This document shows positions 2,891 through 50,253 of a stretch of 64,000 bases of DNA, one piece after another (positions within the stretch are counted from its first letter, which is position 1; the number at the start of each line of letters is the position of its first letter). The notes under the pieces are model-generated. The model saw only the letters and a program-made list of their open reading frames with translations, was not told the origin of the DNA and did no database searches. The position numbers and the translations under genes are program-made. Source of the DNA: a phage; assembly GCA_012646185.1 (NCBI GenBank), contig GCA_012646185.1_4706.1; one strand, 5' to 3'.

Positions 2891-2924
2891 TTCTTACGAT
2901 CCTTTTTATTTATTCGGTTATGTG

Positions 2925-4721
2925 TCAATCGATTATGTCGTGATCGTTAATTTCTACAATTTCTTCATCGAATCGACCGACGTCTTTCTTCAAGCCTGCA
3001 TTGGTTGCTGCAACGTCATTTGCAATTTGTGGGGTAATGATTAACCGACCGCGCTCATCGATAGGTGCGTACATACTGAACTTCTGACGTCCGGTTGGTT
3101 CGGAGTGTGGAAGATTCAGATAGCTTGCACAGAACGGGATGGAACCACTAACCAAACGACTCTCGTCAGCCAATGCAGCACCGCCTGCGTTTTGGCTCTG
3201 GAGAACAACATGCGTGCTCACTTTGAACAGCATGCAATCACCAGGTGACTGAATCGATGTTGCCACTTTCTCACGTTTATCACGATTGCTCTGGATATTG
3301 AGAATCGCTTCCGTTGCAACTTGATTTCGCAACGCCTTCTGTACATCGCGATTGGTCATCTCTTTACGGTTGTTCTGTCGTTTACCACGTTCTGTGGTTT
3401 TAAGATGGAACCCCAGTTTAAAGATGCTCTTACGCACATCCTCCATGACATATTCCAACACCATCAATTCCTTACCGAACATCGTCGTGGTGTCAACACG
3501 ACTCATTTCGATAGTGACATTGTCAATCAGATACGCCATAAATTCATAGAAGTCGTCGCAAGGAATATTTTCCTGTTTGAACTTCTTCTGCTGAATTTCG
3601 TCAACGTAAAGATCGAGACTGTCGATGTGGTGGTTTACATCACGCAACAAACGCGCATCCGCATTGTTGTTATTAAAGATAATCAAACCGAGTAATGTAC
3701 GCCAATGGTCTGGCGCATTCGCGAACTCTTCAACCGGATAGTCTTCCGGAAAACGATCGTAATAACGGTCGATGAGATACAAGAATGCACCGACAAGGCC
3801 AAGAACAATACGTTCCGTGCCTCCACGTCTTACAGCAATTTGAATATCAGGATGTTTGTAACGTACAGCGCTAGCGCTACGGCTTTTACCGCTTTTGCTG
3901 ATACTAAAGCCTTTAGGAATAACCCCCATGGTGCGATAGATTACCCATTGGTCACGCGGAAAATCACGTTCAGCAAGGTTCCGTCCGGTTACGGCTTCGA
4001 CACCTGCAAAACGTCGGAAACACTCACCCACCCCGTACTTCGCAAAGAGATAGTGACCCAGTGTGGTTACGCTGGTGTGGTTGATGTTGTCACCGTTCAC
4101 TTTACTTTGTTTAGTAAGATGATAGATTTGCGACCAGGGTAATGACAGGTAATGACGATAATCGATACCGGTCGGTGTATCGTTGCTCAGGAACTGATAC
4201 GGTGTACGTTTAACCGTGATTTTGTCACGCGGAAGCATGATGAACGCCATGTCTTTCGTGTAACTGATTACGGGGTCAGCGAGTACCGCACTGAGAATGA
4301 AGTTCGCACCACGTAGACGCATTTTACCACCCTGACCTACCGCGGGTAATAGGAGAGGATGTCGGATAATGCAGTAGTCCTTTCCGGGTTCACGACGGTC
4401 ACCTGATTCCATCGCGCCGTACCAGCGGAATTCTAGCATCACCATAAACACATCGGAAGGCGCAAGGTCGAAGGTCAGCTTACCGCTATCCTTCCCTTTG
4501 GTTTTCTTTCCTCCGCTTAAGTAGTGGAACTGTTCGCGGGCCATACAGCGACGCAGGCCATGATACACCAGATCCTTAGGTAAACTATCTTTGCTGTTCC
4601 GCCAAAGACGATCAACATAGGACTCAACATCTTGCATCTTATCGACGACGATGTTGCGTGCTATCTTCTCGTTCATCTTCGGTGCAAGCTCAGCGACAGC
4701 TTTGCAGAATCTAGGATCCAT
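2925..4721 (-). CDS. hypothetical protein (about 598 aa)
   Basis: Long ORF; start moved to ATG at 4719-4721 preceded by AAAGGAG at 6 nt (the ORF-track start at 4724 is a GTG one codon upstream); no catalytic motif recognised. Confidence 0.75.
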   Translation of the reverse strand: MDPRFCKAVAELAPKMNEKIARNIVVDKMQDVESYVDRLWRNSKDSLPKDLVYHGLRRCMAREQFHYLSGGKKTKGKDSGKLTFDLAPSDVFMVMLEFRWYGAMESGDRREPGKDYCIIRHPLLLPAVGQGGKMRLRGANFILSAVLADPVISYTKDMAFIMLPRDKITVKRTPYQFLSNDTPTGIDYRHYLSLPWSQIYHLTKQSKVNGDNINHTSVTTLGHYLFAKYGVGECFRRFAGVEAVTGRNLAERDFPRDQWVIYRTMGVIPKGFSISKSGKSRSASAVRYKHPDIQIAVRRGGTERIVLGLVGAFLYLIDRYYDRFPEDYPVEEFANAPDHWRTLLGLIIFNNNNADARLLRDVNHHIDSLDLYVDEIQQKKFKQENIPCDDFYEFMAYLIDNVTIEMSRVDTTTMFGKELMVLEYVMEDVRKSIFKLGFHLKTTERGKRQNNRKEMTNRDVQKALRNQVATEAILNIQSNRDKREKVATSIQSPGDCMLFKVSTHVVLQSQNAGGAALADESRLVSGSIPFCASYLNLPHSEPTGRQKFSMYAPIDERGRLIITPQIANDVAATNAGLKKDVGRFDEEIVEINDHDIID

Positions 4722-4760
4722 CACACACTCCTTTCAGAAAGTTGCTTAAGCAGATTAAAG

Positions 4761-6197
4761 TTACTTTTTCGATGACGCCTTTTCAAGAATCTTGAAAAAG
4801 GTCATACCTATACCGACAACGGCCGCGGTTATGCTCGCAGCGGCTTTCCAAACATCGACGTTACGTTGACGTCGCGCTTCTTCCGCTTCACGTTGTCTTT
4901 TTGCCTCTTCATCACGTCGACGTATCTCAGCAGCAAACTCGTCGTGCTTACGTTTGGCTTCTTCGTCTCGACGACGAAGTTCAGCGACGAATTCTTCATG
5001 TTTGCGTTTAGCCTCGTCATCACGACGTTTTAAATCAGCTTGATAATCTTCGTGTATTTGTTTACGTAGATCATCTTGACGCTTCATTTCGGCTTGGTGT
5101 TGTTCCATCCTACGTTTTTGTTCGTCTTTAAGCTGATCGAGTTCGGCTTTATGTTGTTCATCGCGCAGCTTTGCGTCGGCGCGATGCGCCTCATGCATCT
5201 GTGCGATAACTGCCTTGTGTTCATCCGCCATACGCCGCATTTCAGCCATCACCCCTTTAAGGGTTTCTTCTGATGCCTTACGTTCGTAGCTACGCTGGTC
5301 GAAATCATTTTTGTAGGCTTCTTTTTGGATGGGGTCGCGCCAATGCAATGCCGATTCACGTGTCGGAAAAACATTGTACTTCCACATCTCTTTTTCCAAA
5401 TCTTCGACCGGTACGAAGATGGAGTCATTATTCCCGAAGGTAACCAACATACCTGGCGCGCCTGCTCCATTCGTTGGTTTTATTTCGAACGCTTTCCCCA
5501 GCACGTTAACCCATAAGCTATACGGATTATGAAAGTCGGGTGGCGTCCAATGGATAGTGAGTTGCGTTCCGAGAATCCGGAAACCCTCTGTTTTTCCCGT
5601 CAAGCTCCGCGCGCACGTTGCGATGTAGGGGTGATCAATCCCTTTCGTAACGTGGTCTGCGCTTTTGTATTCTCCTTTAACTTTTACGATTGCCACGTTG
5701 ATTTGCGCGACATAAGCAGGTTGATTAAAGTTCAGCGTGTTGAGGTCAATTTGACATATTTCATCCAGCGTATCGTACCAGTCTTGCTGGTCTAATAGAC
5801 GCGGCATTTTCTCAGCGTTAACAATACGACGGATATGCGGTTTCCTTATCGCGTAACCTGTGCCGTTTTTAACACGGAGTATATCCCGACGTCTACCCGC
5901 GTAGACGAAGTTTCTGAATGCACCATTCGCATTAGATACGTCATGGCTGTCAACTATTACAGGACTACGAAATTTTGAACGTCGTACGATCCTGAATGTA
6001 TTGCCGTCCTCAACCCTACCAGGAATGTACTGGAACATATTGTCGGAGGTGATAACCAACACGGTATGGCCAGATTCATTAATACATGCCCATCCTAATT
6101 CCAGGTCATATAACGGTTCAGCATAACCGTCAATGCGATAAGCGTGCGTACCATCCCACGGTTCGAACGCGGTATCACATATTGGCATGGAGGGCAT
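4761..6197 (-). CDS. tail-anchored membrane protein with globular N-domain and long E/K/R-rich helical repeat region
   Basis: ORF with GGAGG 6 nt upstream of ATG at 6195-6197; C-terminal hydrophobic segment AAASITAAVVGIGMTFFKIL; preceding region is charged 17-aa repeats (RRDEEAKRKH[DE]EF.AE[IL]). Confidence 0.8.
   Translation of the reverse strand: MPSMPICDTAFEPWDGTHAYRIDGYAEPLYDLELGWACINESGHTVLVITSDNMFQYIPGRVEDGNTFRIVRRSKFRSPVIVDSHDVSNANGAFRNFVYAGRRRDILRVKNGTGYAIRKPHIRRIVNAEKMPRLLDQQDWYDTLDEICQIDLNTLNFNQPAYVAQINVAIVKVKGEYKSADHVTKGIDHPYIATCARSLTGKTEGFRILGTQLTIHWTPPDFHNPYSLWVNVLGKAFEIKPTNGAGAPGMLVTFGNNDSIFVPVEDLEKEMWKYNVFPTRESALHWRDPIQKEAYKNDFDQRSYERKASEETLKGVMAEMRRMADEHKAVIAQMHEAHRADAKLRDEQHKAELDQLKDEQKRRMEQHQAEMKRQDDLRKQIHEDYQADLKRRDDEAKRKHEEFVAELRRRDEEAKRKHDEFAAEIRRRDEEAKRQREAEEARRQRNVDVWKAAASITAAVVGIGMTFFKILEKASSKK
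4850..5030. repeat. imperfect about 51-bp tandem repeat inside CDS 4761..6197
   Basis: Two to three adjacent copies of a unit encoding RRDEEAKRKH-EF-AE; visible as repeated cgacgacgaagttcagcgacgaattcttcatgtttgcgtt-like blocks. Confidence 0.6.
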
Positions 6198-6346
6198 CGT
6201 CAACCTCCATCTGATTGAAAACTATCACGCATAATGCATTTCCCTTTTCTTGTTCTTATCGAGCCGACAGCCGACGGTTTCAGCATCGTTCCTAGCGCGA
6301 GAACGACCTTACGTGTTGTCTATGCCTTATTCATCGCAGGCGTCTG

Positions 6347-6405
6347 TCACCTAGGTAATGTAAGCGTCAAATTTTTTCTATTCGCAACAATAAACGGCAT
6401 AGAAA
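6347..6405 (-). promoter_or_regulatory. conserved intergenic element, copy B (promoter or 5' leader candidate)
   Basis: Shares CACCTAGGTAATGTA...GCATAGAA core with copies at 12829..12888 and 51485..51545; lies between the hairpin after the 740-aa gene and the next minus-strand gene. Confidence 0.4.
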
Positions 6406-6435
6406 CCTCCCCCAACCCTTACGGGCTGAGGGAGG
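6406..6435. terminator. GC-rich hairpin downstream of 6535..8757 (intrinsic terminator candidate)
   Basis: CCTCCC...GGGAGG outer stem with inner CCC/GGG stem and 4-nt loop; member of the recurring intergenic hairpin family. Confidence 0.55.
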
Positions 6436-6534
6436 CTGACTTATGTATCACGGTGCCGGATGAATGTCCGGTGCAATGAAACCATCCGCAACGTTGTCGT
6501 CAAGAATATCGTCCAACGAAGCAGCTACGGTAGT

Positions 6535-8757
6535 TCAGTTAGTCTGAACCGGCAGCTTGATGTTTTCAGTGTAGACCTTACGCAGGTTCACAACGTTAAT
6601 CAGACCCAGCAGCGGGCAGTTGTTAACGAAGCGGCAGCGCGGCTGAACCATGGTTTCTTTAGAAACCTGACCGTTACGGGTAACCTGAGCAACAGATACC
6701 AGTTCCGGTACATACAGGAACATACCGAAGGTCAGCGGATCCGGAGAACCCTGGATACCACGAGACAGGGTCACGAAGATCTTATCGCGCAGCATGACGT
6801 TCGGGTTATCTACAACCACGAAGTTGAAGCTTACACCAACGGTACGGAAATCGCCATCGGTCTGCAGGAACTGCGGGATGTAGTTGTCAGTTGCTACTAC
6901 GCAACGCGGTTTCTCATCAGCGTTGGAAGACAGCAGCTGCAGAGCTGGCTGATAACCAGACTCGGAGTACATGCGGTATGCCATCTCACGAATCACGTTC
7001 ATGATCGCAGCAGACACTTCAGCACGACGTTCTGCAGTGGTGGTACCCTGAACAGATTTCTCCAGGTCCAGATTGATTTCTTCGAACCACGGACGGATCA
7101 GGTAACGACCGAAACCTTCGATCTGGATGTCGCCGAACTGACGGAAGCGAGAGGTCGCAACCGCTTTCAGTGCGTCTTTGTAGCTGAACAGTTTCTCAAC
7201 CATCAGGTTGTCGAAACGTGCGTTAGCAGCTTGGATCAGAACGTCCAGGTCAGCAGCGTTTTCTTCCCAATCCAGCGGACGAGGAATGGAGAACGGAGCC
7301 AGCAGGCCGATTGCGTAACGTTCTTGCTTCATGTTGAAGTCAAGGTGCTTACCGCGCTCACGACGGTTGCTGTTGTTACGGCGGATACGCAGTTCGTAAC
7401 CAACCAGTTTGAAGCTCAGGTCTTCAGCCAGCTGTTTGAACTCTTCGCCCTTACGCGGTTGTTCGATGTTGTCACGATCGACCAGACGATACAGTTCAGC
7501 GTTAGCGCCGTTAACACGCAGACCGGCTTTCTCTACGTTGGAAGAACCGTAAACTTCGATTGCCAGCTGAGCAGCGGATTTCGAATCGATGATGTCCTGC
7601 AGCGCTTCAGCTCGTGCACCTTTAACGTCAACGGTGTTCTCATCAACGAAGATGGAGTGGGTGTCGAACGCCAGGGTCATTTTGCGGAAGTCGCCTTCCA
7701 GGGATTTCTGGAAACCGTTGGTGATCAGACCAGATACGTCGAACGGTACGTAAGAGGTTTTGCTGTGCTTGGTAGATTTGATTTCCACCAGGATTTTGGT
7801 CAGCGTGATCTGGGCGTCCAGCGCGTCGGTGTTGTCGCTGTAACCGTTAGCCAGGATGCTATCGTCTTCAGCGATACCGATCATGTCGATCAGTTTATCA
7901 ACAGCCAGGTAAGACGTTTTATAAGTTACGCCTTTAATTTCGATGTCGCGCGGAGCAACGATAGCTTTGTCAACGAAGTACTGTGCGTTAGCATCGTCAG
8001 CACGATAGATCGGATGCAGATCGGTCACGTCGTTGGACAGAACGTCGTTGTACATGAACGCATCCAGCAGCGGACGACGTACCCAATCAGCCGGAGTACC
8101 GTCAGCGTTACGACGCAGGTGGTTGAACACCAGCGGACGACGGAAAGATACGTCGTAACCGATCTGGTTCGGAGCCAGAACGATGGTGTTGTACAGTTCG
8201 TTACCCATGCGGCTCAGACGAGAAGCCTTCACGTTGAACACAACGGAGTACGGCATCATGTCACGCAGTTCTTTCTGGTCGTAGGACAGCTGAACCAGTT
8301 CTTCAGATTCGCAACCGCAGGAATCAGCAGCCATCATGACGAAGTTAGAGCTGTCAACTTCACGGCCAGACGGAGTGGTGCTGATGTTCATGGAACGTGC
8401 TTGTTTAGCATATTCCACCGGGTTACCATGAGCCAGCATGATCAGTGCTGCTGCACGAGCCTGCTGTGCGTTCATGGTGAACAGCTGTTCTTCAATACGC
8501 TGCTTCTCTTCCGGAGTGGTGGTTTCGAAGCCCAGCATGGACAGAACCGGTTCTTCGGCTTTACGGATGTCGCTGCTGAAGCTCTTAACATCCATTTCGT
8601 TAACCAGTTTGTCCATGGATTTGAAATCAACCTTAGAAGCAGATTCCATAGACAGGAAGGTGTTCTCCAGACCTTTGTCTGCTGGTTTGCTACCATTAGC
8701 GGTCAGGAACTGGCGAGTGGCCGCGACCTGTTGGCTAAGAAGGGTTTTATCATTCAT
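6535..8757 (-). CDS. major virion structural protein, tentatively major capsid protein (740 aa)
   Basis: Strongest codon bias in the window (its antisense strand is stop-free for about 2.3 kb, ORF 6460..8760); AAAGGA 8 nt upstream of ATG; followed by hairpin; size fits jumbo-phage capsid proteins but no motif confirms the fold, and a tail sheath protein is an alternative. Confidence 0.45.
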   Translation of the reverse strand: MNDKTLLSQQVAATRQFLTANGSKPADKGLENTFLSMESASKVDFKSMDKLVNEMDVKSFSSDIRKAEEPVLSMLGFETTTPEEKQRIEEQLFTMNAQQARAAALIMLAHGNPVEYAKQARSMNISTTPSGREVDSSNFVMMAADSCGCESEELVQLSYDQKELRDMMPYSVVFNVKASRLSRMGNELYNTIVLAPNQIGYDVSFRRPLVFNHLRRNADGTPADWVRRPLLDAFMYNDVLSNDVTDLHPIYRADDANAQYFVDKAIVAPRDIEIKGVTYKTSYLAVDKLIDMIGIAEDDSILANGYSDNTDALDAQITLTKILVEIKSTKHSKTSYVPFDVSGLITNGFQKSLEGDFRKMTLAFDTHSIFVDENTVDVKGARAEALQDIIDSKSAAQLAIEVYGSSNVEKAGLRVNGANAELYRLVDRDNIEQPRKGEEFKQLAEDLSFKLVGYELRIRRNNSNRRERGKHLDFNMKQERYAIGLLAPFSIPRPLDWEENAADLDVLIQAANARFDNLMVEKLFSYKDALKAVATSRFRQFGDIQIEGFGRYLIRPWFEEINLDLEKSVQGTTTAERRAEVSAAIMNVIREMAYRMYSESGYQPALQLLSSNADEKPRCVVATDNYIPQFLQTDGDFRTVGVSFNFVVVDNPNVMLRDKIFVTLSRGIQGSPDPLTFGMFLYVPELVSVAQVTRNGQVSKETMVQPRCRFVNNCPLLGLINVVNLRKVYTENIKLPVQTN

Positions 8758-43413: not shown

Positions 43414-43634
43414 TGTACACTCTCTAAATTTACGTAAATTTAAGGGCTAATGGATCGGCTGGCCGCACCAATCACAATGTGTCCGCTGCTATGCAACGGC
43501 ATTCATAGAAATACCTTTTGACGGTAACATCACCCATCACACCCCAAGCAATAAGAGTGGTCGGTTAAAAACAACAGAACGTGGGGATGATATAGAAAAT
43601 CACCTTTTAACACTTATTACGAGTTTATCAAGCC
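43414..43634. promoter_or_regulatory. divergent intergenic region (strand switch, candidate promoters)
   Basis: 220-bp ORF-free spacer between the divergent starts of 42103..43413 and 43635..45134. Confidence 0.4.
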
Positions 43635-45134
43635 ATGAGCGAACAAGAACGAAAACCTAAGAAGAAACTGCTCGGTATTCAATGTCGACACATCAGCTAT
43701 AACGAAGCGAACGACGGCAGCAAGAACGACCTCATGATCGCAAAAGAGATCATGTTCTTTGATGACAATACGCAAGCGACGAACCTTCGCTTCTTTGAGA
43801 ATTACAAACGTCCGTTTTGGGTGACGGTAGAGAGTAAACGTAAGAACAAATATAAAAAGGAAAGCGAGAAGCTCTCGCATGTGCGTCGCTATGATGTCCG
43901 CCAAAGTGAACTGGTTGAAAAGATCAGTTCGGTGCTTTATAAAAGACGTGCTGACGATAACACCCGTTTACAGCAGCTTGCACGGAGTCCATACCTCTAC
44001 GGCACGGACGTTAGCGCCAGCTGTTATTTAAAAACCCAGTACAACACAAAATGGCCGGAATACGTCGATAAATTACCCGCTTCCATTGCCTGTTTCGATA
44101 TCGAAACCGACGTTGTCCATGGACATGGTAAGATCGTTTGTATGTCTATTACAATGGGATACAATGCGATACTTTGCTATACCAAGGACTTCGTTGGTCA
44201 TATTCCGAATGCGATTGAGAAAACCCATGAGAAGATTCGATATTACCTGGCCGAACGTCTGAATACCAAAGAAGATCCTCATGCGTTCGAAAAATATCAG
44301 TACGATGTGCGAATCGTAGAAAGTCCGGCACAAGCAGTCATCCAATGCATGCAGAAGGTTCACGAATGGCAGCCGGATTATCTCCTTGGCTGGAATATCG
44401 CGTTCGATATTCCGCGCATGCTCCAGGCACTGAACGAGGAAGGGTATCGTCCCGAGGATGTTTTCTCCGATCCTCGTGTACCCCCTAAGTATCGTATTGC
44501 TCGCTGGGTACCACCGAAGACCGACAAGGTATCTGCTTCAGGCCGTAAAACCAACCTTACCCTCGAGCAGACCTGGCCGATGTTTTATACGATGGCTACG
44601 TATCAGGTTATGGATGCGATGTGTGGTTATAAGTTCGTTCGTTTAGGAAGACCGGATGAGGGACGCTATTCACTCGATGCGGTGTTAGAGCGTAATAAAT
44701 GCCATACGAAATTAAAAGCGATTCCTGGTACAGAAGGGTTCACGGAGCTCGCCTGGCACGAAGAGATGCAAACGAACCATCAAATCGACTACGGCGTATA
44801 TAACCTTTGGGATAACCAAGGTATTGAGGCGTTGGACCAGAAAACAAAAGACTATTCGATGACCATCCCGATTCGTTTAGCGGCGTCGGATTTGAAAGAT
44901 TTCAGTTCCAACCCTAAACGTATCTGCGATAAACTTTTCTTCGTGTATCTTAACCGTGGGGAAGTCATGGGATGCACCGCCGACGACATGACCCAGGAAG
45001 AAGATAAGTGGGTTATCTCACGAACCGGACATATCGTCACATTACCATGCGATCTCATGGCGGACAACGGCATTCATCTCTTCTGGGATATGCCTAATTT
45101 AAGGAGCTATATTCGATTATTTGTTGCGGATTAA
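43635..45134 (+). CDS. DEDDy 3'-5' exonuclease domain protein, family B DNA polymerase N-terminal-like
   Basis: Exo I ACFDIETD, Exo II LLGWNIAFDIPRML, Exo III GRYSLDAV in canonical order and spacing; no polymerase palm motifs seen downstream. Confidence 0.65.
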   Translation: MSEQERKPKKKLLGIQCRHISYNEANDGSKNDLMIAKEIMFFDDNTQATNLRFFENYKRPFWVTVESKRKNKYKKESEKLSHVRRYDVRQSELVEKISSVLYKRRADDNTRLQQLARSPYLYGTDVSASCYLKTQYNTKWPEYVDKLPASIACFDIETDVVHGHGKIVCMSITMGYNAILCYTKDFVGHIPNAIEKTHEKIRYYLAERLNTKEDPHAFEKYQYDVRIVESPAQAVIQCMQKVHEWQPDYLLGWNIAFDIPRMLQALNEEGYRPEDVFSDPRVPPKYRIARWVPPKTDKVSASGRKTNLTLEQTWPMFYTMATYQVMDAMCGYKFVRLGRPDEGRYSLDAVLERNKCHTKLKAIPGTEGFTELAWHEEMQTNHQIDYGVYNLWDNQGIEALDQKTKDYSMTIPIRLAASDLKDFSSNPKRICDKLFFVYLNRGEVMGCTADDMTQEEDKWVISRTGHIVTLPCDLMADNGIHLFWDMPNLRSYIRLFVAD

Positions 45135-45165
45135 CCTTCGTTCTGTAAAAACTTACCGATATATA

Positions 45166-45211
45166 GAAATTACTGTGAGATACCAAAGGTACTCGTAAGT
45201 TTAGTAATTTC
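45166..45211 (+). other. hairpin (9-bp stem GAAATTACT/AGTAATTTC, 28-nt loop) between exonuclease gene and HNH gene
   Basis: Read directly from sequence; could be a terminator or part of an intron 5' structure. Confidence 0.4.
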
Positions 45212-45227
45212 TGAGCGGTAGGTAAAT

Positions 45228-46364
45228 ATGTTGGAACATCTTGAACATTTAGACAATGAATACTTAAATTTCACCAATCGTCGTTATCGTATCTTCGAAG
45301 ACGGTACACTTTACGATTACAAAGAGAATTGTAAAGTACCTGTTATAATAGAAGATAACAACTCTTACGTTATTATCGATTGGTATCGTGGGGTTGGTAA
45401 ATACGAATTGGGGATGATCATGCTTACAGCATTTGATCGCATCCACATTCCTAACTATCTTTACGATGAAATTGAATCGTTGTTTATTGATAACGACCCG
45501 ACGAACTTTTCGTATAGTAACCACATCTATCGTTTCCGTAATGGACCGCTGGCTGTGGAAGGGTATCCGGGATATTACTACATCCCGTTTGCCACGTACT
45601 ATGCGCTAAATGAACAAGGTGAATGTTTAAGTCTTTTGTCTGGGGAAGGTATAACGTGGACAATGACGCAGCAAAACGGTACGCGGCGTCCCGGCTATCG
45701 ATACAGAAAGGTAACACCTGATAGCGGTTTTACGGCTCAGCTGTATCGTCATCGAGCGATGATGTTGACGTTTCGTCGTTACGACGCAAGCGTTGTGGAA
45801 ATGACCGTTAATCACAAGAACGGTATTAAAGGCGATGATTGGCTGGATAACCTGGAATGGGCAACCTACAAGGAAAACAACAATCATGCGCGTATAAACG
45901 GTTTATGTGACGGCAAAGCGAAACCTATCAAGATCTTTGATTATAATCGTCATACCGAACGTCATTTCAAGAGCATCGCTGAGGCGGAACGTGCGTATCC
46001 ACACGTAGCAAAAGGACGTTTCAAATGGTGGGTTGAAAATCCACCGAAACGTATACCTGAATGTAACCTCTACATCAAACATGCGTTCGATAATACTCCG
46101 TGGCCTGAATGGAAACTGGGTGATGAACGACGTATTGAAGATGTAGCGGGTATTCCGATTATCGCCCTTAACATGGTTACAGGCGAGAAACGAGTGTATT
46201 CATCGGTTACAGCTGCGGGTAAGGATACGAAAACAAGTTGGATAACAGTACGACGTCACTGTGATAAGCGTGTCGTTCCTGTTAAACAAGCATGGTGTTT
46301 CCGTTATGCTGACGACGTCAAAAACATGCCTGAGTTAACTTCCCTACCAACAATCGAACAGTAA
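45228..46364 (+). CDS. HNH homing endonuclease
   Basis: HNH signature TVNHKNGIKGDDWLDNLEWATYKENNNHA; C-terminal repeated DNA-binding-like modules (SIAEAERAYPHVAKGRFKWW, SVTAAGKDTKTSWITVRR); gene visibly more AT-rich than its surroundings. Confidence 0.85.
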   Translation: MLEHLEHLDNEYLNFTNRRYRIFEDGTLYDYKENCKVPVIIEDNNSYVIIDWYRGVGKYELGMIMLTAFDRIHIPNYLYDEIESLFIDNDPTNFSYSNHIYRFRNGPLAVEGYPGYYYIPFATYYALNEQGECLSLLSGEGITWTMTQQNGTRRPGYRYRKVTPDSGFTAQLYRHRAMMLTFRRYDASVVEMTVNHKNGIKGDDWLDNLEWATYKENNNHARINGLCDGKAKPIKIFDYNRHTERHFKSIAEAERAYPHVAKGRFKWWVENPPKRIPECNLYIKHAFDNTPWPEWKLGDERRIEDVAGIPIIALNMVTGEKRVYSSVTAAGKDTKTSWITVRRHCDKRVVPVKQAWCFRYADDVKNMPELTSLPTIEQ

Positions 46365-46875
46365 CGATAACAGGTCCCCCTACTTGTAATGAGTGGGTGA
46401 ACTCTCTTTAATTGCTGGAAACCTTTAATGCCCCTCCACACCACAACGCAATCCGAAAGGGTAAACGTGATGGTTGTCGAAAGACAGAAAAAAGTTGGAG
46501 GGGATTACCTAAGCTGAAATAAAAGCCGTTACTTTCTGGATATGGAAAGAGTCTAACGGTGCTAAGGGTCCTGCTAGAAATAAGGTAACCGTAGCAGCGA
46601 AGACCCTACGGACTGTCGTGACCGACTCGATGAGTTGGCGTGGTTAACACGGACAGGCTACGGGTAACGTTCAACGACCATCCGGTTGCGCGGAGTAGGA
46701 GAATTAGGATGTTCTCCGAAAAGGGAGAAGTCGGTCGAGGTGTTGTAGAAACACCGTTGCTTTGCTTCGCAAACATAAGACAGGCTAAGATATGGTCTAT
46801 ATTAAATGTAATACTATGATGTATAGAATTTAATGGCTCGATATTAGCAGTTCATATCCAAATGGGCAGATCCTG
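46365..46875 (+). ncRNA. structured non-coding region with group I intron catalytic-core-like elements
   Basis: About 510 nt without a credible ORF; R-like GTTCAACGACCA (46669..46680) and S-like AAGATATGGTC (46788..46798) with complementary GACCAT/ATGGTC halves (P7-like); several local hairpins and a long-range CCCCTCCA/TGGAGGGG complement. Confidence 0.35.
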
Positions 46876-47091
46876 TTGAATCTATCCAGAGCATGTGTTT
46901 TTCGTGAGCTCTCACGCATTGAGGGCGTCTCTGACTACCAATTCAGGAAGCTAGGTATCAACTTTATTACCGGAGGTAAAACGAACGCTGTAGACTTCTG
47001 TAGAATCGTTTATAAAGCACCATCGATGTTTGAGCTCTTAGAACATTTCGATGCGACGCGTCCAAAAGAGGAAGCGCGGACCATCGAATGA
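46876..47091 (+). CDS. doubtful small ORF (71 aa, TTG start); possible 3' exon or spurious
   Basis: Frame open from 46834; no SD; no recognisable motif. Confidence 0.2.
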   Translation: MNLSRACVFRELSRIEGVSDYQFRKLGINFITGGKTNAVDFCRIVYKAPSMFELLEHFDATRPKEEARTIE

Positions 47092-47141
47092 TTCAAGTAG
47101 GTTGATCCTCGTTTAACAAAAAAGAAAACACATGCGAAGCT

Positions 47142-47169
47142 CCTCCCCCTGGCGGAAGCCGGAGGGAGG
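47142..47169. terminator. hairpin with GGAA tetraloop
   Basis: CCTCCCCCTGGC-GGAA-GCCGGAGGGAGG, 11 of 12 pairs; downstream of 47178..47663. Confidence 0.6.
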
Positions 47170-47177
47170 GGTGAGGT

Positions 47178-47663
47178 TTATGCGCGTTCGTTACCAACCG
47201 TTACTTTGTAGTCAGCGTCGGTTAAGAATATAGACAGGAATCCATGTTCTTTGCAAATCTGACTAAGGATGTCAGCAATGATTTCGTTGATCATCGGCTT
47301 GTTTGCAAGGGCATAGATGTACCCGGGTGTAAAAGAAAGTGCGTGATTGATCATAGGCTCATGAGAAGCCAAGATAAGGATCACGTGATGCTTCCCATCG
47401 TCGGTAACGACCGCTTGCGTAGACACGAAGAAATCAGTGAAGCAGCAGCGATCACAGGCTTTAGGTATATACAAGTCACCCAGAGCTTCGTTACGTGCTT
47501 TTACGTGTGTTTCAGGGGTGATGCTGCTAAGTTGATCTTCAGCGAGATCCAAGACATCCTCAATCGTTTTAAGAATAGCGTTGCGGAAATCCTCACGGTA
47601 GAATGGGATGATATCACGATCGTTCATGTAATCGCCGGATTCGATAGTAAAGTTGATGTTCAT
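47178..47663 (-). CDS. small hypothetical protein (161 aa), accessory island
   Basis: ORF with AGGAG 6 nt upstream. Confidence 0.7.
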   Translation of the reverse strand: MNINFTIESGDYMNDRDIIPFYREDFRNAILKTIEDVLDLAEDQLSSITPETHVKARNEALGDLYIPKACDRCCFTDFFVSTQAVVTDDGKHHVILILASHEPMINHALSFTPGYIYALANKPMINEIIADILSQICKEHGFLSIFLTDADYKVTVGNERA

Positions 47664-47773
47664 TGAATGCTCCTAGTGGTTATGTCGATTGATTGATGTA
47701 TTGATTTATGTTTGATGGGGTATACTTGAAACTACAAATAAGGCTCTTGGCGTTGCTGTTATGGTTCAGTTCT

Positions 47774-48301: not shown

Positions 48302-48700
48302 TTATGCTTCGCAATCAGCTGAAGGCGTCGCGCCTTTCTTACCGGCGATACGCCAAATCCGACACGCTGGGTAATGGTTAACCTCTAGAGAGCAAGGAAT
48401 GTTATATTTCTCTTCCAGCGCATAAAGACATTTCGTTAGCTGCTCCAGCGCGTTCTCGTCGTGTCGTAACGCGTGGTGGCCTAATCGATGTTGGTCGTTC
48501 TTTATATACGCCTCGAAGAGAACATGTTGGCGATGTACGCTGACGTTTACAGCCTCGAGTATAGCTTGGTCGAGCATACGACTAAAGCACATCAACGAGT
48601 CAGATACGTTTTCTCGCTTAACCAGATCGATCATGGCGGGAATATACGAATGGTCGATGTTATCGATGACCGCTTTAGCGACGGAATCAGCAACGTTCAT
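48302..48700 (-). CDS. small hypothetical protein (132 aa), tandem paralog of 48736..49131
   Basis: Shared blocks VKAV.DNIDH...MID..K.E, EKYNIP.SLEVN..PA with its neighbour. Confidence 0.7.
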   Translation of the reverse strand: MNVADSVAKAVIDNIDHSYIPAMIDLVKRENVSDSLMCFSRMLDQAILEAVNVSVHRQHVLFEAYIKNDQHRLGHHALRHDENALEQLTKCLYALEEKYNIPCSLEVNHYPACRIWRIAGKKGATPSADCEA

Positions 48701-48735
48701 CTTTTAATCCCTAGTTTGTTATTGATCACGTATAT

Positions 48736-49131
48736 TTACTCTTTGACGTCAGTTGTCGTTTCGACATGCTTCTCACTACTGACGTACCAGAGCAGGTACG
48801 CTGGGAAAAGATTGACCTCTAAGCTAAATGGGATATTGTATTTCTCTTCCATTTTACAGAGATGTTCTTTAAGTAAATTTCTCGCGTCTCTGTCACCACG
48901 AACAGAGTGCCAGTCTAGTTCTTTGTTCTCCTTTACCAGGACCTCTACGATGATACGTTGCTCGTGAACCTCGGTTTTCACAGTGAAAAGTAAATCGCTG
49001 CTATCAAAACGGGTAAAACGAATGTATGAACCAGGTGTTTTTTCTTGTTTAATAATATCGATCATGGTAGAAATGCGCGGATGATCGATGTTGTCGTTAA
49101 CAGCTTTAACGATGGATTCTACAATGCTCAT
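48736..49131 (-). CDS. small hypothetical protein (131 aa), tandem paralog of 48302..48700
   Basis: See paralog; ATGA overlap with the upstream micro-ORF. Confidence 0.7.
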   Translation of the reverse strand: MSIVESIVKAVNDNIDHPRISTMIDIIKQEKTPGSYIRFTRFDSSDLLFTVKTEVHEQRIIVEVLVKENKELDWHSVRGDRDARNLLKEHLCKMEEKYNIPFSLEVNLFPAYLLWYVSSEKHVETTTDVKE

Positions 49132-49226
49132 TTTTTATCCTTAATGTTATCGATATTGACGAGTTCATCAATACGGCACTGTTGGTTGAATTCGATTAAT
49201 CGTTGAACTTTATCTTTGATAGACAT
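49128..49226 (-). CDS. candidate micro-ORF (32 aa, MSIKDKVQRLIEFNQQCRIDELVNIDNIKDKK)
   Basis: Not in the ORF track (below 60 aa); starts 2 nt after the stop of 49229..49687 and ends in an ATGA overlap with 48736..49131. Confidence 0.3.
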   Translation of the reverse strand: MSIKDKVQRLIEFNQQCRIDELVNIDNIKDKK

Positions 49227-49228
49227 GA

Positions 49229-49687
49229 TTACCCATTAGCTCCTTCTTCGTCTGGAGAGTACTCCATTGTGTAGAATTCATAACCATCGGAAAACTTGAG
49301 TGTTAATGTAATAGGGAAATCGCACGGCGTAGCTGATTTCGTAAATGCGTTATTAGCAACATCTGCCAACCGACGTATAGCATCAGTCCCGCTGACGCTG
49401 AATGGTAGTTGTATGTTGATAAGGATACGATGCTTGTAAACATAGAAAACAACGGTACTGTCAAGATAGACGCTATGGAACGGTATTGTTGGGATGCGTT
49501 CCACGATGGTAAAATACGTCCCGTCATTATCGCTATGTCCCACCGACCAAATATCGGATTTGCGTAGATTTTGTTTGAGAGATTCGATGCTTCGAGTGAC
49601 GGTATCAGCAACAGGCGTGACGTAAGCGTCTTTATGCGAGTCGAAAAGTTCGTTGACGTTAGATTCGAATGAAAACGTTGTTGCCAT
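49229..49687 (-). CDS. small hypothetical protein (152 aa), paralog of 49753..50253
   Basis: C-terminal similarity ITLTLKFSDGYEFYTMEYSPDEE versus VILTINGHDGSGLFEFHYDPDNE. Confidence 0.7.
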   Translation of the reverse strand: MATTFSFESNVNELFDSHKDAYVTPVADTVTRSIESLKQNLRKSDIWSVGHSDNDGTYFTIVERIPTIPFHSVYLDSTVVFYVYKHRILINIQLPFSVSGTDAIRRLADVANNAFTKSATPCDFPITLTLKFSDGYEFYTMEYSPDEEGANG

Positions 49688-49752
49688 TTTCTACCTCAAT
49701 GGTTTAACCGATACGTGCCCCACCTAACAAGGGACACGTTATCGTTGATTAA

Positions 49753-50253
49753 TTACTCTTCTGTGTTTTCATTGTCGGGATCGTAGTGGAATTCGAACAG
49801 CCCTGAACCGTCGTGCCCGTTGATTGTTAGTATAACGGGCATATCGAATCCTCGGACACGCGAATGAAAACACTGTGCTAATTTGAGTTTGGCGTATGCC
49901 GCTATTTCATTGACAGCAATACACGATTCACCTGTTATACTCAGTATAACGTCGATACTAACAATGTTGTCGTGCAACGCAAAACGCCAGCGATCGATAC
50001 GATTATTATCTTTATCGGTTGTCTCGTTTACGAGATAGACTTTATCGTCAACCGACAAAGCGGGACTCCAGCAACGATCGTTTATTAAATTCGCCTGGAG
50101 TTTTAGTATCGTCTGATCGATAATATCCCAACACGTAACCAGCGTGGTGTCAGGCACTGAGTAGAGAAGGGCGTGCACTTTATCCTTTATTTTAAGTGCT
50201 TCCGCAGGACGTCCGCAAATACCATGCATTTCAACTTTCTTATTCATATTCAC
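49753..50253 (-). CDS. small hypothetical protein (166 aa), paralog of 49229..49687
   Basis: See paralog. Confidence 0.7.
   Translation of the reverse strand: MNMNKKVEMHGICGRPAEALKIKDKVHALLYSVPDTTLVTCWDIIDQTILKLQANLINDRCWSPALSVDDKVYLVNETTDKDNNRIDRWRFALHDNIVSIDVILSITGESCIAVNEIAAYAKLKLAQCFHSRVRGFDMPVILTINGHDGSGLFEFHYDPDNENTEE

Follow-up and report, generated by a model that had tools for sequence, protein, structure and literature searches.

The 64,000-nucleotide (nt) stretch of phage DNA analyzed here (GenBank assembly GCA_012646185.1, contig GCA_012646185.1_4706.1), the whole of which is referred to as the window, contains a gene of the phiKZ gp082 family, named 'DNA polymerase' in RefSeq, which is split between the codons ...FVAD and LDISSSYPN.... 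Between the two parts lie an HNH homing endonuclease gene and a structured RNA. Positions 43500-47300 of the window share 95% identity with the genome of a nucleus-forming jumbo phage, Escherichia phage vB_EcoM_Goslar, and we conclude with high confidence that a group I intron, subgroup-IA-like and equipped with its own HNH homing endonuclease, interrupts the gp082-family gene of a Goslar-like nucleus-forming jumbo phage of E. coli. The main features of the locus, in window coordinates, are the following.

43635..45131, + strand: 5' exon, codons 1-499 of the phiKZ gp082-family PolB-like exonuclease / 'DNA polymerase' gene, ending ...RLFVAD
45132..46836, + strand: group I intron (assigned with high confidence), 1705 nt, opening with UAA and closing with omega-G 46836; delimited by intron-less homologues and by the contiguous gene on the related contig L009, and matched by the Rfam family RF00028
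45228..46364, + strand: homing endonuclease gene, 378 amino acids (aa), with HNH at aa 192-218 (nt 45801-45881) and NUMOD1 at aa 309-344 (nt 46152-46259)
46837..47091, + strand: 3' exon, 84 codons plus stop, starting LDISSSYPNGQ...; placed by the open frame, the homologue alignment, a PHROG match and L009

The 5' part of the gene is a 499-aa open reading frame (ORF; 43635-45134 including the stop) that aligns to phiKZ gp082 and 201phi2-1 gp144, while the frame of the 3' part is open from 46834, reads (W)LDISSSYPNGQ... and stops at 47089-91, the small ORF 46876-47091 sharing this frame. The two relatives read ...[VI]AD|LDI[VS]S[TS]YPN at the junction, and this alignment with intron-less homologues sets the 5' splice site after U45131, makes UAA 45132-34 the first intron bases and G46836 the omega-G, and starts the 3' exon at C46837. 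A tblastn search with the joined exon sequence retrieved 287 phage records, in 282 of which the gene is contiguous across the junction. The first-pass annotation had located the endonuclease cassette just 3' of an exonuclease ORF and had regarded the exon boundaries as undefinable; the contiguous homologues place the cassette inside the gene instead, and the boundaries are now fixed to the nucleotide, 45131|45132 and 46836|46837. The comparison with intron-less homologues that it had recommended gave a clear answer: their genes run 84 codons past the end of the 499-aa ORF, matching the sequence downstream of the ribozyme.

An intron-less allele with exactly the predicted junction exists. The predicted spliced product has 583 aa and matches phrog_3011 ('DNA polymerase') over 8-576 of its 583 residues (E 4.4e-178), and a protein-database search with it returned P0001, also of 583 aa, encoded by a contiguous gene on L009, a 237,273-bp Goslar-like contig from ENA. 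The 1752 nt of the spliced window exons align gap-free to the L009 gene, so that the exact exon junction can be observed directly, and the L009 protein differs from the predicted one at two residues (L147I and H198R), both distant from the junction. At the 3' end, G46836 stands before CUCGAU, ligation of the exons restores the frame, and all alleles examined end in G before the 3' exon.

Concerning the host gene, the DNA_pol_B_exo1 match is weak (16.4 bits, cut-off 23, E 0.006), with FDIETD and YNLWD motifs visible, and the protein shows a single motif-A-like DISSSYPN, its C-terminus coming 84 residues after the junction. Polymerase motifs B and C, sought in the window with a simple regular expression for their common forms, were not found, and a PDB sequence search with the spliced protein returned nothing relevant. 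Group-1 jumbo phages were described as having a divergent PolB without a fused exonuclease, the latter being encoded separately (Iyer et al., PMC7824862); given this and the result for motifs B and C, the gene is treated here as a PolB-derived exonuclease subunit and not as a complete PolB. The intron lies one codon before the invariant D of a DxxSxYPN motif which, in our own reading, appears to resemble PolB motif A. A scan for sigma-70 promoters and intrinsic terminators gave no more hits than shuffled controls did, which is what one would expect of a phage that has RNA polymerases of its own.

Goslar carries the same intron and layout, unannotated: its RefSeq entry (L001, NC_048170; 4636-6394, 6395-6649) lists gp068 as a 499-aa 'DNA polymerase' and gp069 as a 'NUMOD1 domain protein', leaving the ribozyme and the 85-codon second exon without annotation. 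IMG/VR holds three Goslar-like contigs, namely L006 (= Goslar), L008, which has a Goslar-type intron (97% identity), and L007, whose exons are 95-97% identical to those of the window and which presents, at exactly the same site, a different intron; this intron is 1536 nt long, its ribozyme is compact, and its endonuclease shares 44% aa identity with that of the window. Near-identical host genes are thereby observed as one empty allele (L009) and three occupied allele types. The window's insertion site is called site A below, to distinguish it from a site B located 6 nt downstream, and site-A introns of the further contigs L014, L015 and L016 also entered the comparison.

The covariance-model search that the first-pass annotation had called for gives a real match that stays under the gathering score of the family. 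RF00028 is the sole match at E <= 0.01 in the 64-kb window, at 46326-46817 (+ strand), with 42.5 bits (gathering score 50) and E values of 6.8e-9 for the region and 1.8e-7 for the window; an Rfam search of the locus at the gathering threshold found nothing, the match appearing in E-value mode. The large P5, P6 and P8 insertions are a plausible reason for the sub-threshold score; among related introns, the one of L007 at the same site scores 70.4 bits, above the cut-off, and that of phiKZ gp72 87.6 bits. The 472-nt ribozyme region folds modestly better than shuffles (z = -2.4, 1 of 100 shuffles equal); the stretch described earlier as structured and ORF-free ends at 46836 and not at ~46875. Plain minimum-free-energy folding, in which the P3/P7 pseudoknot is not representable and parts of the core are mispaired, was used for local hairpins and for the z-score alone; the helices listed next were located with the Rfam alignment as guide, and their order and complementarity were verified by script. 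IGS stands for internal guide sequence.

45128..45132, + strand: putative P1 5' strand GGAU|U, U45131 being the last exon base; pairs 5/5 with the IGS
45138..45142, + strand: P1a 5' strand UCGUU, six bases into the intron; pairs with AACGA 46363-67
45152..46362, + strand: endonuclease cassette; diverges from Goslar as a block and occupies the P1a terminal loop
46363..46367, + strand: P1a 3' strand AACGA, pairs with UCGUU
46373..46377, + strand: IGS GGUCC, putative P1 3' strand, just upstream of P2; (A/G)GUCC in all six site-A introns examined
46379-85 / 46391-97, + strand: putative P2 hairpin CCUACUU / GAGUGGG; CGGUGGGG/CCCCACCG instead in L007
46402-08 / 46721-27, + strand: P3 CUCUCUU / AAGGGAG; UUCCCGU/ACGGGAG in L007
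46412-17 / 46592-97, + strand: P4, from Rfam alignment and complementarity
46421-25 / 46582-86, + strand: P5, with a ~155-nt extension that includes the helix 46525-31 / 46554-60
46603-06 / 46662-65 (46603..46665), + strand: P6 with two internal hairpins; three pairs changed in L007
46669..46681, + strand: J6/7 and P7 5' strand, GUUCAAC GACCAU, the 'R' element
46676-81 / 46792-97, + strand: P7 GACCAU / AUGGUC; GACUAU/AUAGUC in L007 and phiKZ, compensatory
46682-84 / 46691-93, + strand: putative P7.1 CCG...CGG, between P7 and P3'
46698-703 / 46712-17, + strand: P7.2 GGAGAA...UUCUCC; GGGAC/GUCCU in L007, CACUC/GAGUG in phiKZ
46731-36 / 46779-84, + strand: putative P8 UCGGUC / GACAGG, with one G.A mismatch, enclosing two hairpins; from complementarity
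46787..46797, + strand: J8/7 and P7 3' strand, AAGAU AUGGUC, the 'S' element
46798..46836, + strand: P9 region and omega-G (G46836), variable between alleles

The ribozyme core and its covariation are directly observed. The strands of P1 to P8 are found in canonical order and are complementary, the P3/P7 pseudoknot, P7.1/P7.2 and the J6/7 and J8/7 consensus are present, and compensatory changes with respect to L007, phiKZ and Goslar occur in P3, P5, P6, P7, P7.2 and the P5-extension helix, as judged on a handful of sequences. P3 of L007 shows one double compensatory change, U-A to G-C, and in the P5-extension helix four consecutive pairs differ from Goslar, all of them compensated (GCCGUUA/UAACGGU vs GCCACCG/CGGUGGU). 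A 32-nt J6/7-P7-P7.1 stretch is 94% identical to the phiKZ gp72 intron, and the ribozyme as a whole is 93% identical to that of Goslar. In the classification of Michel and Westhof, P7.1/P7.2 hairpins between P7 and P3' reportedly mark subgroup IA, and here two such hairpins are present at 46682-93 and 46698-717. The R element proposed in the first-pass annotation (GTTCAACGACCA) stands exactly where it had been placed, at 46669-46680, and its S element (AAGATATGGTC) is there as well, at 46787-46797, one base off the proposed 46788-46798; the P7 cores, GACCAT (46676-46681) and ATGGTC (46792-46797), are perfectly complementary, as it had claimed.

The exon-guide pairing GGAU|U / IGS, with its U.G wobble, is also found in five other site-A introns. 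Two other arrangements at the 5' splice site were tried and rejected: splicing after GUU45125 (...LFV|LDISS, with AACAGG as guide) lacks the U.G wobble and disagrees with the homologues and L009, which require ...VAD|LD, and a hairpin GCGGA/UUCGU at the splice site, taken as P1, would leave U-1 unpaired. The flanks of the cassette are identical to Goslar up to ~45151 and from 46363 on, and the P1/P1a segments coincide exactly with these identity limits. P1a comprises 5-12 bp of wholly different yet complementary sequence in five intron lineages, while (A/G)GUCC beside P2 is conserved; from this pairing and the covarying P1a helices, it follows that an extended P1 holds the endonuclease gene in its terminal loop. 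The P1a helices of the other introns are:

P1a of L007: AAAUCGGUUAAG / CUUAACCGAUUU, 12 bp
P1a of L014: AGUUGUUU / AAACAACU, 8 bp
P1a of L015: AUUGCA / UGCAAU, 6 bp
P1a of L016: AGAUU / AAUCU, 5 bp

The endonuclease ORF (45228..46364, 378 aa) is present as originally claimed and its domains are intact, HNH_3 (25.7 bits, cut-off 24.8) and NUMOD1 (32.9 bits, cut-off 22.8) both scoring above their Pfam cut-offs; its description as AT-rich applies to the first 300 nt (GC 0.353) but not to the remainder, which at 0.458 is like the flanks. It matches phrog_59 'HNH endonuclease' (E 3.9e-17) as well as other HNH PHROGs, and its relatives are PhiPA3 gp210 (28% identity), phiKZ gp179, an HNH protein of EL and others. 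I-HmuI (1U3E) is matched weakly over the HNH core (E 0.05), with the H-K-[DN]-G-x-K ... N-L-x-W motif retained, and the N-terminal ~120 of the 378 aa are uncharacterised. Compared with its Goslar counterpart, the endonuclease shows 68% aa and 67% nt identity, with nt differences of 25%, 18% and 57% at codon positions 1, 2 and 3, respectively, an excess at third positions that indicates purifying selection. As the exon is 97% and the ribozyme 93% identical, the divergent cassette has either been exchanged or is evolving ~10x faster than its surroundings. The context is that of a homing gene: it lies within the intron, and both empty (L009) and occupied (window, Goslar, L008, L007) alleles are found.

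The mechanism we propose for the element is as follows. The IGS GGUCC (46373-77) would pair with the exon GGAU plus the first intron base, U45131 sitting in a U.G wobble; guanosine-initiated cleavage after U45131 would be followed by attack at omega-G46836 and by ligation of GCGGAU to CUCGAU, which would yield a 583-aa protein reading ...FVAD-LDISSSYPN.... The predicted ligated RNA junction is ...UUGUUGCGGAU joined to CUCGAUAU..., and the junction-spanning peptide of the predicted protein is LFVADLDISSSYPNGQ. Translation of unspliced RNA would stop at the UAA that opens the intron. By analogy with PhiPA3 gp210 and I-HmuI, the 378-aa HNH/NUMOD1 protein would introduce a nick close to the insertion site in alleles that lack the intron or carry a rival one, and repair from the intron-bearing copy would transfer the intron and neighbouring exon bases to the target. 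Catalytic splicing, nicking activity with its specificity, and ongoing homing are inferred properties of the element.

The exons next to the insertion site give a view of the history of the element. The amino acids around the junction are the same in all five alleles, and silent differences are concentrated there: the 45 nt before and the 45 nt after the site together show 10-27 differences, compared with ~2-3.5 expected per 90 nt (binomial p 8e-4 to 8e-16). On the 5' side, the window, Goslar and L007 share one and the same 45-nt flank, L008 differs, and L009 shows 10 differences from these three, including C at -1. The 3' flank differs for every allele pair, with serine codons that switch between AGY and TCN (AGC AGT TCA, TCT TCA AGC, AGC TCA TCT). 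Exon co-conversion, target-site immunity or both together would produce such clusters, and these causes are not separable computationally.

Two readings of the clusters were weighed, each of them tentative. The first takes the motif-A site of the chimallivirus gp082 gene as a battleground, on which rival intron/endonuclease alleles (68% and 44% aa identity) might serve as weapons between co-infecting phages, the recoding of the 3' flank might confer immunity to the phage's own, and perhaps to a rival, endonuclease, and cassettes might be swapped via the P1a loop; if true, nature would have repeated, several times, the 17-silent-mutation immunity experiment of Birkholz et al., whose engineered resistant target carried 17 silent mutations, a pattern that the natural silent differences mirror. 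According to the second, which we also hold to be possible rather than probable, the silent clusters are relics of passive co-conversion, dating from earlier homing out of diverged donors, with neither immunity nor competition involved and with endonucleases that may be inactive. Exon co-conversion beside mobile group I introns is well established, plant cox1 being an example, and the identity of the window, Goslar and L007 over the 45 nt upstream is what would result if this sequence had travelled together with the intron. What speaks against passive tracts is that none of the three endonuclease alleles is truncated or has lost the HNH motif and all are under purifying selection, that each of them has a different silent 3' flank in which AGY/TCN serine switches leave the protein unchanged, and that the intron-less allele still circulates, which means that the element is not fixed.

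The first-pass annotation had left the choice between a self-splicing and a degenerate intron; the intron itself is borne out by RF00028, the junction and L009, and no sign of degeneration was seen, splicing being the probable outcome. A degenerate, non-splicing intron, with the gene made as a 499-aa part plus a C-terminal peptide of ~71-85 aa, or as the 499-aa part alone, would agree with the Rfam score below the gathering threshold, with the habit of chimalliviruses of splitting polymerase genes into separate polypeptides (PMC7824862), and with a small ORF (46876-47091) that has its own TTG start. We consider it quite improbable: all core helices are conserved and intact, as are the U.G wobble and the omega-G; identity to Goslar is 93% for the ribozyme and 67% in nt for the embedded endonuclease gene, which points to selection on the RNA; the first 13 codons of the 3' exon, with the invariant LDI.S.YPN, are upstream of any start codon and so would be lost without splicing; and Goslar, a viable laboratory phage, is organised alike at this locus, although every one of the 287 phage records retrieved contains the gene. 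That the HNH gene is free-standing between two independent genes, followed by an unrelated structured RNA (a regulatory 3' untranslated region or a small RNA), is how GenBank/RefSeq annotate Goslar and would suit the lack of an Rfam match at the gathering threshold, but it has next to no chance of being right, since the two exons join, nucleotide for nucleotide, as the sequence runs in intron-less homologues, L009 effectively refutes it, RF00028 matches at E 1.8e-7 with no competing family, and the exon finds its P1 partner, the guide sequence, 1.2 kb further downstream, next to a covarying helix.

Several points weigh against our view of a mobile, self-splicing intron. The Rfam score of the window copy is below the family's gathering threshold; the P1, P2, P7.1 and P8 assignments are manual ones and do not come from a statistical covariation test on a large alignment; P1 as modelled is short (5 bp) and P10 weak (2-3 bp). 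Nuclease activity and target are deduced from relatives that share 24-32% identity, and passive co-conversion from old homing leaves the same silent clusters, which do not prove present-day activity.

The site of insertion is a hot-spot within the gene family. Among the best 120 homologue clusters, to which the following counts refer, 21 proteins end near 480-500 aa, ten at site A, eight at site B and three earlier, so that the interruption affects ~18 of 120 (~15%), at one or the other of two sites separated by 6 nt. At site A the proteins end in ...AD or a few read-through codons beyond, and at site B in ...ADLD. The DNA of L014, L015 and L016 confirms site A, with a GAU|UAAC start, the endonuclease gene directly downstream and a guide sequence, and for L014 the 3' exon was also verified as LDVSAAYPH. 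Site B is occupied in L010 by an ORF-less intron joining ADLD|IVSTYPN, and L012 gives a ribozyme match at the same place. In cultured phages the gene is non-contiguous in just 5 of 287 records, so the interruption is mostly visible in metagenomes.

Two of these contigs deserve a description of their own. In L014 (ENA ERZ23495331 scaffold_1172, 4965-7388), a distant chimallivirus-like contig, the site-A intron carries two ORFs, the first a 435-aa HNH/I-HmuI-NUMOD-like endonuclease in the P1 loop and the second of 215 aa (6429-7076), inserted after the P5 5' strand, with the 3' half of the ribozyme resuming at ~7080. In L012 (Logan SRR29149956_154, 5500-7800) an HNH_3 gene of 320 aa (6081-7043), oriented oppositely, comes after the site-B (ADLD|) intron with its RF00028 match at 5471-5824. 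Aeromonas phage ACP1 was considered as a further case, the same gene with an ORF-less intron, and was rejected, as the interrupted gene is actually that of RNA polymerase beta' with two tandem introns. These two ACP1 ribozymes (L005, PP601403.1, 2534-3306) are back-to-back, ORF-less and unannotated, score 43.8 bits (2550-2905) and 46.6 bits (2920-3306) with RF00028, and interrupt the beta'-like gene at ...GAFNAD (NADFDGD motif); their P4-P5 region is ~73% identical to that of the window intron.

Further observations concern the neighbourhood. A 161-aa gene convergent with the 3' exon (window 47178-47663, - strand) is common to the intron-bearing window, Goslar (gp070) and L007, and in L009 (5867-6836) two unrelated genes, of 149 and 169 aa, replace it, identity resuming at window position 47751; the replacement may reflect hitch-hiking of a flanking marker or merely a variable region. 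The L007 endonuclease (4314-5447) has an annotated start without Shine-Dalgarno, and an internal ATG nine codons on (MSSSYEYPK...), with AAGGAG at 6-nt spacing, is the likelier start. Finally, window positions 48302-50253 (- strand) hold tandem paralogous small genes in two pairs, of 132/131 aa (48302-48700 and 48736-49131, 38% identical) and of 152/166 aa (49229-49687 and 49753-50253, 23% identical, E 1e-6).

For Goslar, the E. coli model of nucleus-forming phages, these results amount to an annotation fix: gp068 is very probably the first exon of a 583-aa protein, gp069 the intron-encoded homing endonuclease, and the 820-nt 'empty' gap the ribozyme plus the second exon. They also provide an E. 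coli counterpart to the intron-competition system of PhiPA3/phiKZ, with an intron-less allele and three endonuclease variants in nature, and they indicate that large peripheral insertions drop real phage group I introns below the Rfam cut-off. Full-text literature searches did not find an intron in the Goslar DNA polymerase gene described, which is no proof that it is unpublished.

Among known systems, the introns of T4 td, nrdB and sunY (IA2) share with the window intron a phage IA-type core with P7.1/P7.2. The intron of td additionally contains a homing endonuclease gene and has an in-frame stop immediately behind the 5' splice site. The T4 endonucleases are of GIY-YIG or His-Cys-like type, with ORFs in other loops, whereas the window has an HNH/NUMOD1 enzyme. 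Moreover, T4 splicing is coupled to translation, while chimallivirus transcription takes place in the ribosome-free phage nucleus; introns of these phages should hence show, in a natural setting, how group I splicing fares when translation does not accompany transcription.

The introns of the Bacillus phages SPO1, SP82 and Bastille (I-HmuI, I-HmuII, I-BasI) are, like that of the window, group I introns in a DNA-polymerase-related gene with an HNH nicking-type endonuclease and a NUMOD-like tail. Their host gene is a family-A polymerase, in contrast to the PolB-derived host gene found here; in the window the ORF lies in the P1 loop, and the endonuclease has 378 aa compared with 174 aa for the I-HmuI type. 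As cited in PMC11620839 and PMC12908238, Goodrich-Blair and Shub (1994/1996) described ribozymes that hardly differ between related phages but carry strongly divergent ORFs, a pattern shared with the window and Goslar.

The introns of PhiPA3 gp210, in the virion RNA polymerase (vRNAP) beta-subunit gene gp211/209, and of phiKZ gp71-gp72-gp73 likewise belong to group I and interrupt essential polymerase genes in jumbo phages that form a nucleus; they are inserted at invariant acidic motifs that look like active sites and carry a homologous HNH endonuclease. PhiPA3 gp210 nicks the intron-less site and acts in the competition between phages (PMC11620839). As in the window, the endonuclease gene of the phiKZ gp72 intron comes directly after the 5' splice site, enclosed by a 14-bp long-range helix (AAUAUCCAUCCAUC / GGAUGGAUGGAUAUU). 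Their host is an RNA polymerase subunit gene, whereas that of the window is a gp082-type PolB-like exonuclease gene of an E. coli phage, and the window ribozyme has 472 nt with P5, P6 and P8 extensions, compared with ~230 nt in PhiPA3/phiKZ, splicing and nicking being presumed in the present case. Overall, the closest relatives of the element are the PhiPA3 gp210 and phiKZ gp72 introns, and its closest functional analogue is the SPO1/SP82 pair of DNA polymerase introns. It is otherwise a typical phage mobile IA-like group I intron with an HNH nicking-type endonuclease, inserted in a replication gene at an invariant motif; what is new with respect to these systems is the host gene, the insertion site, its unannotated presence in Goslar and the population evidence from multiple alleles.

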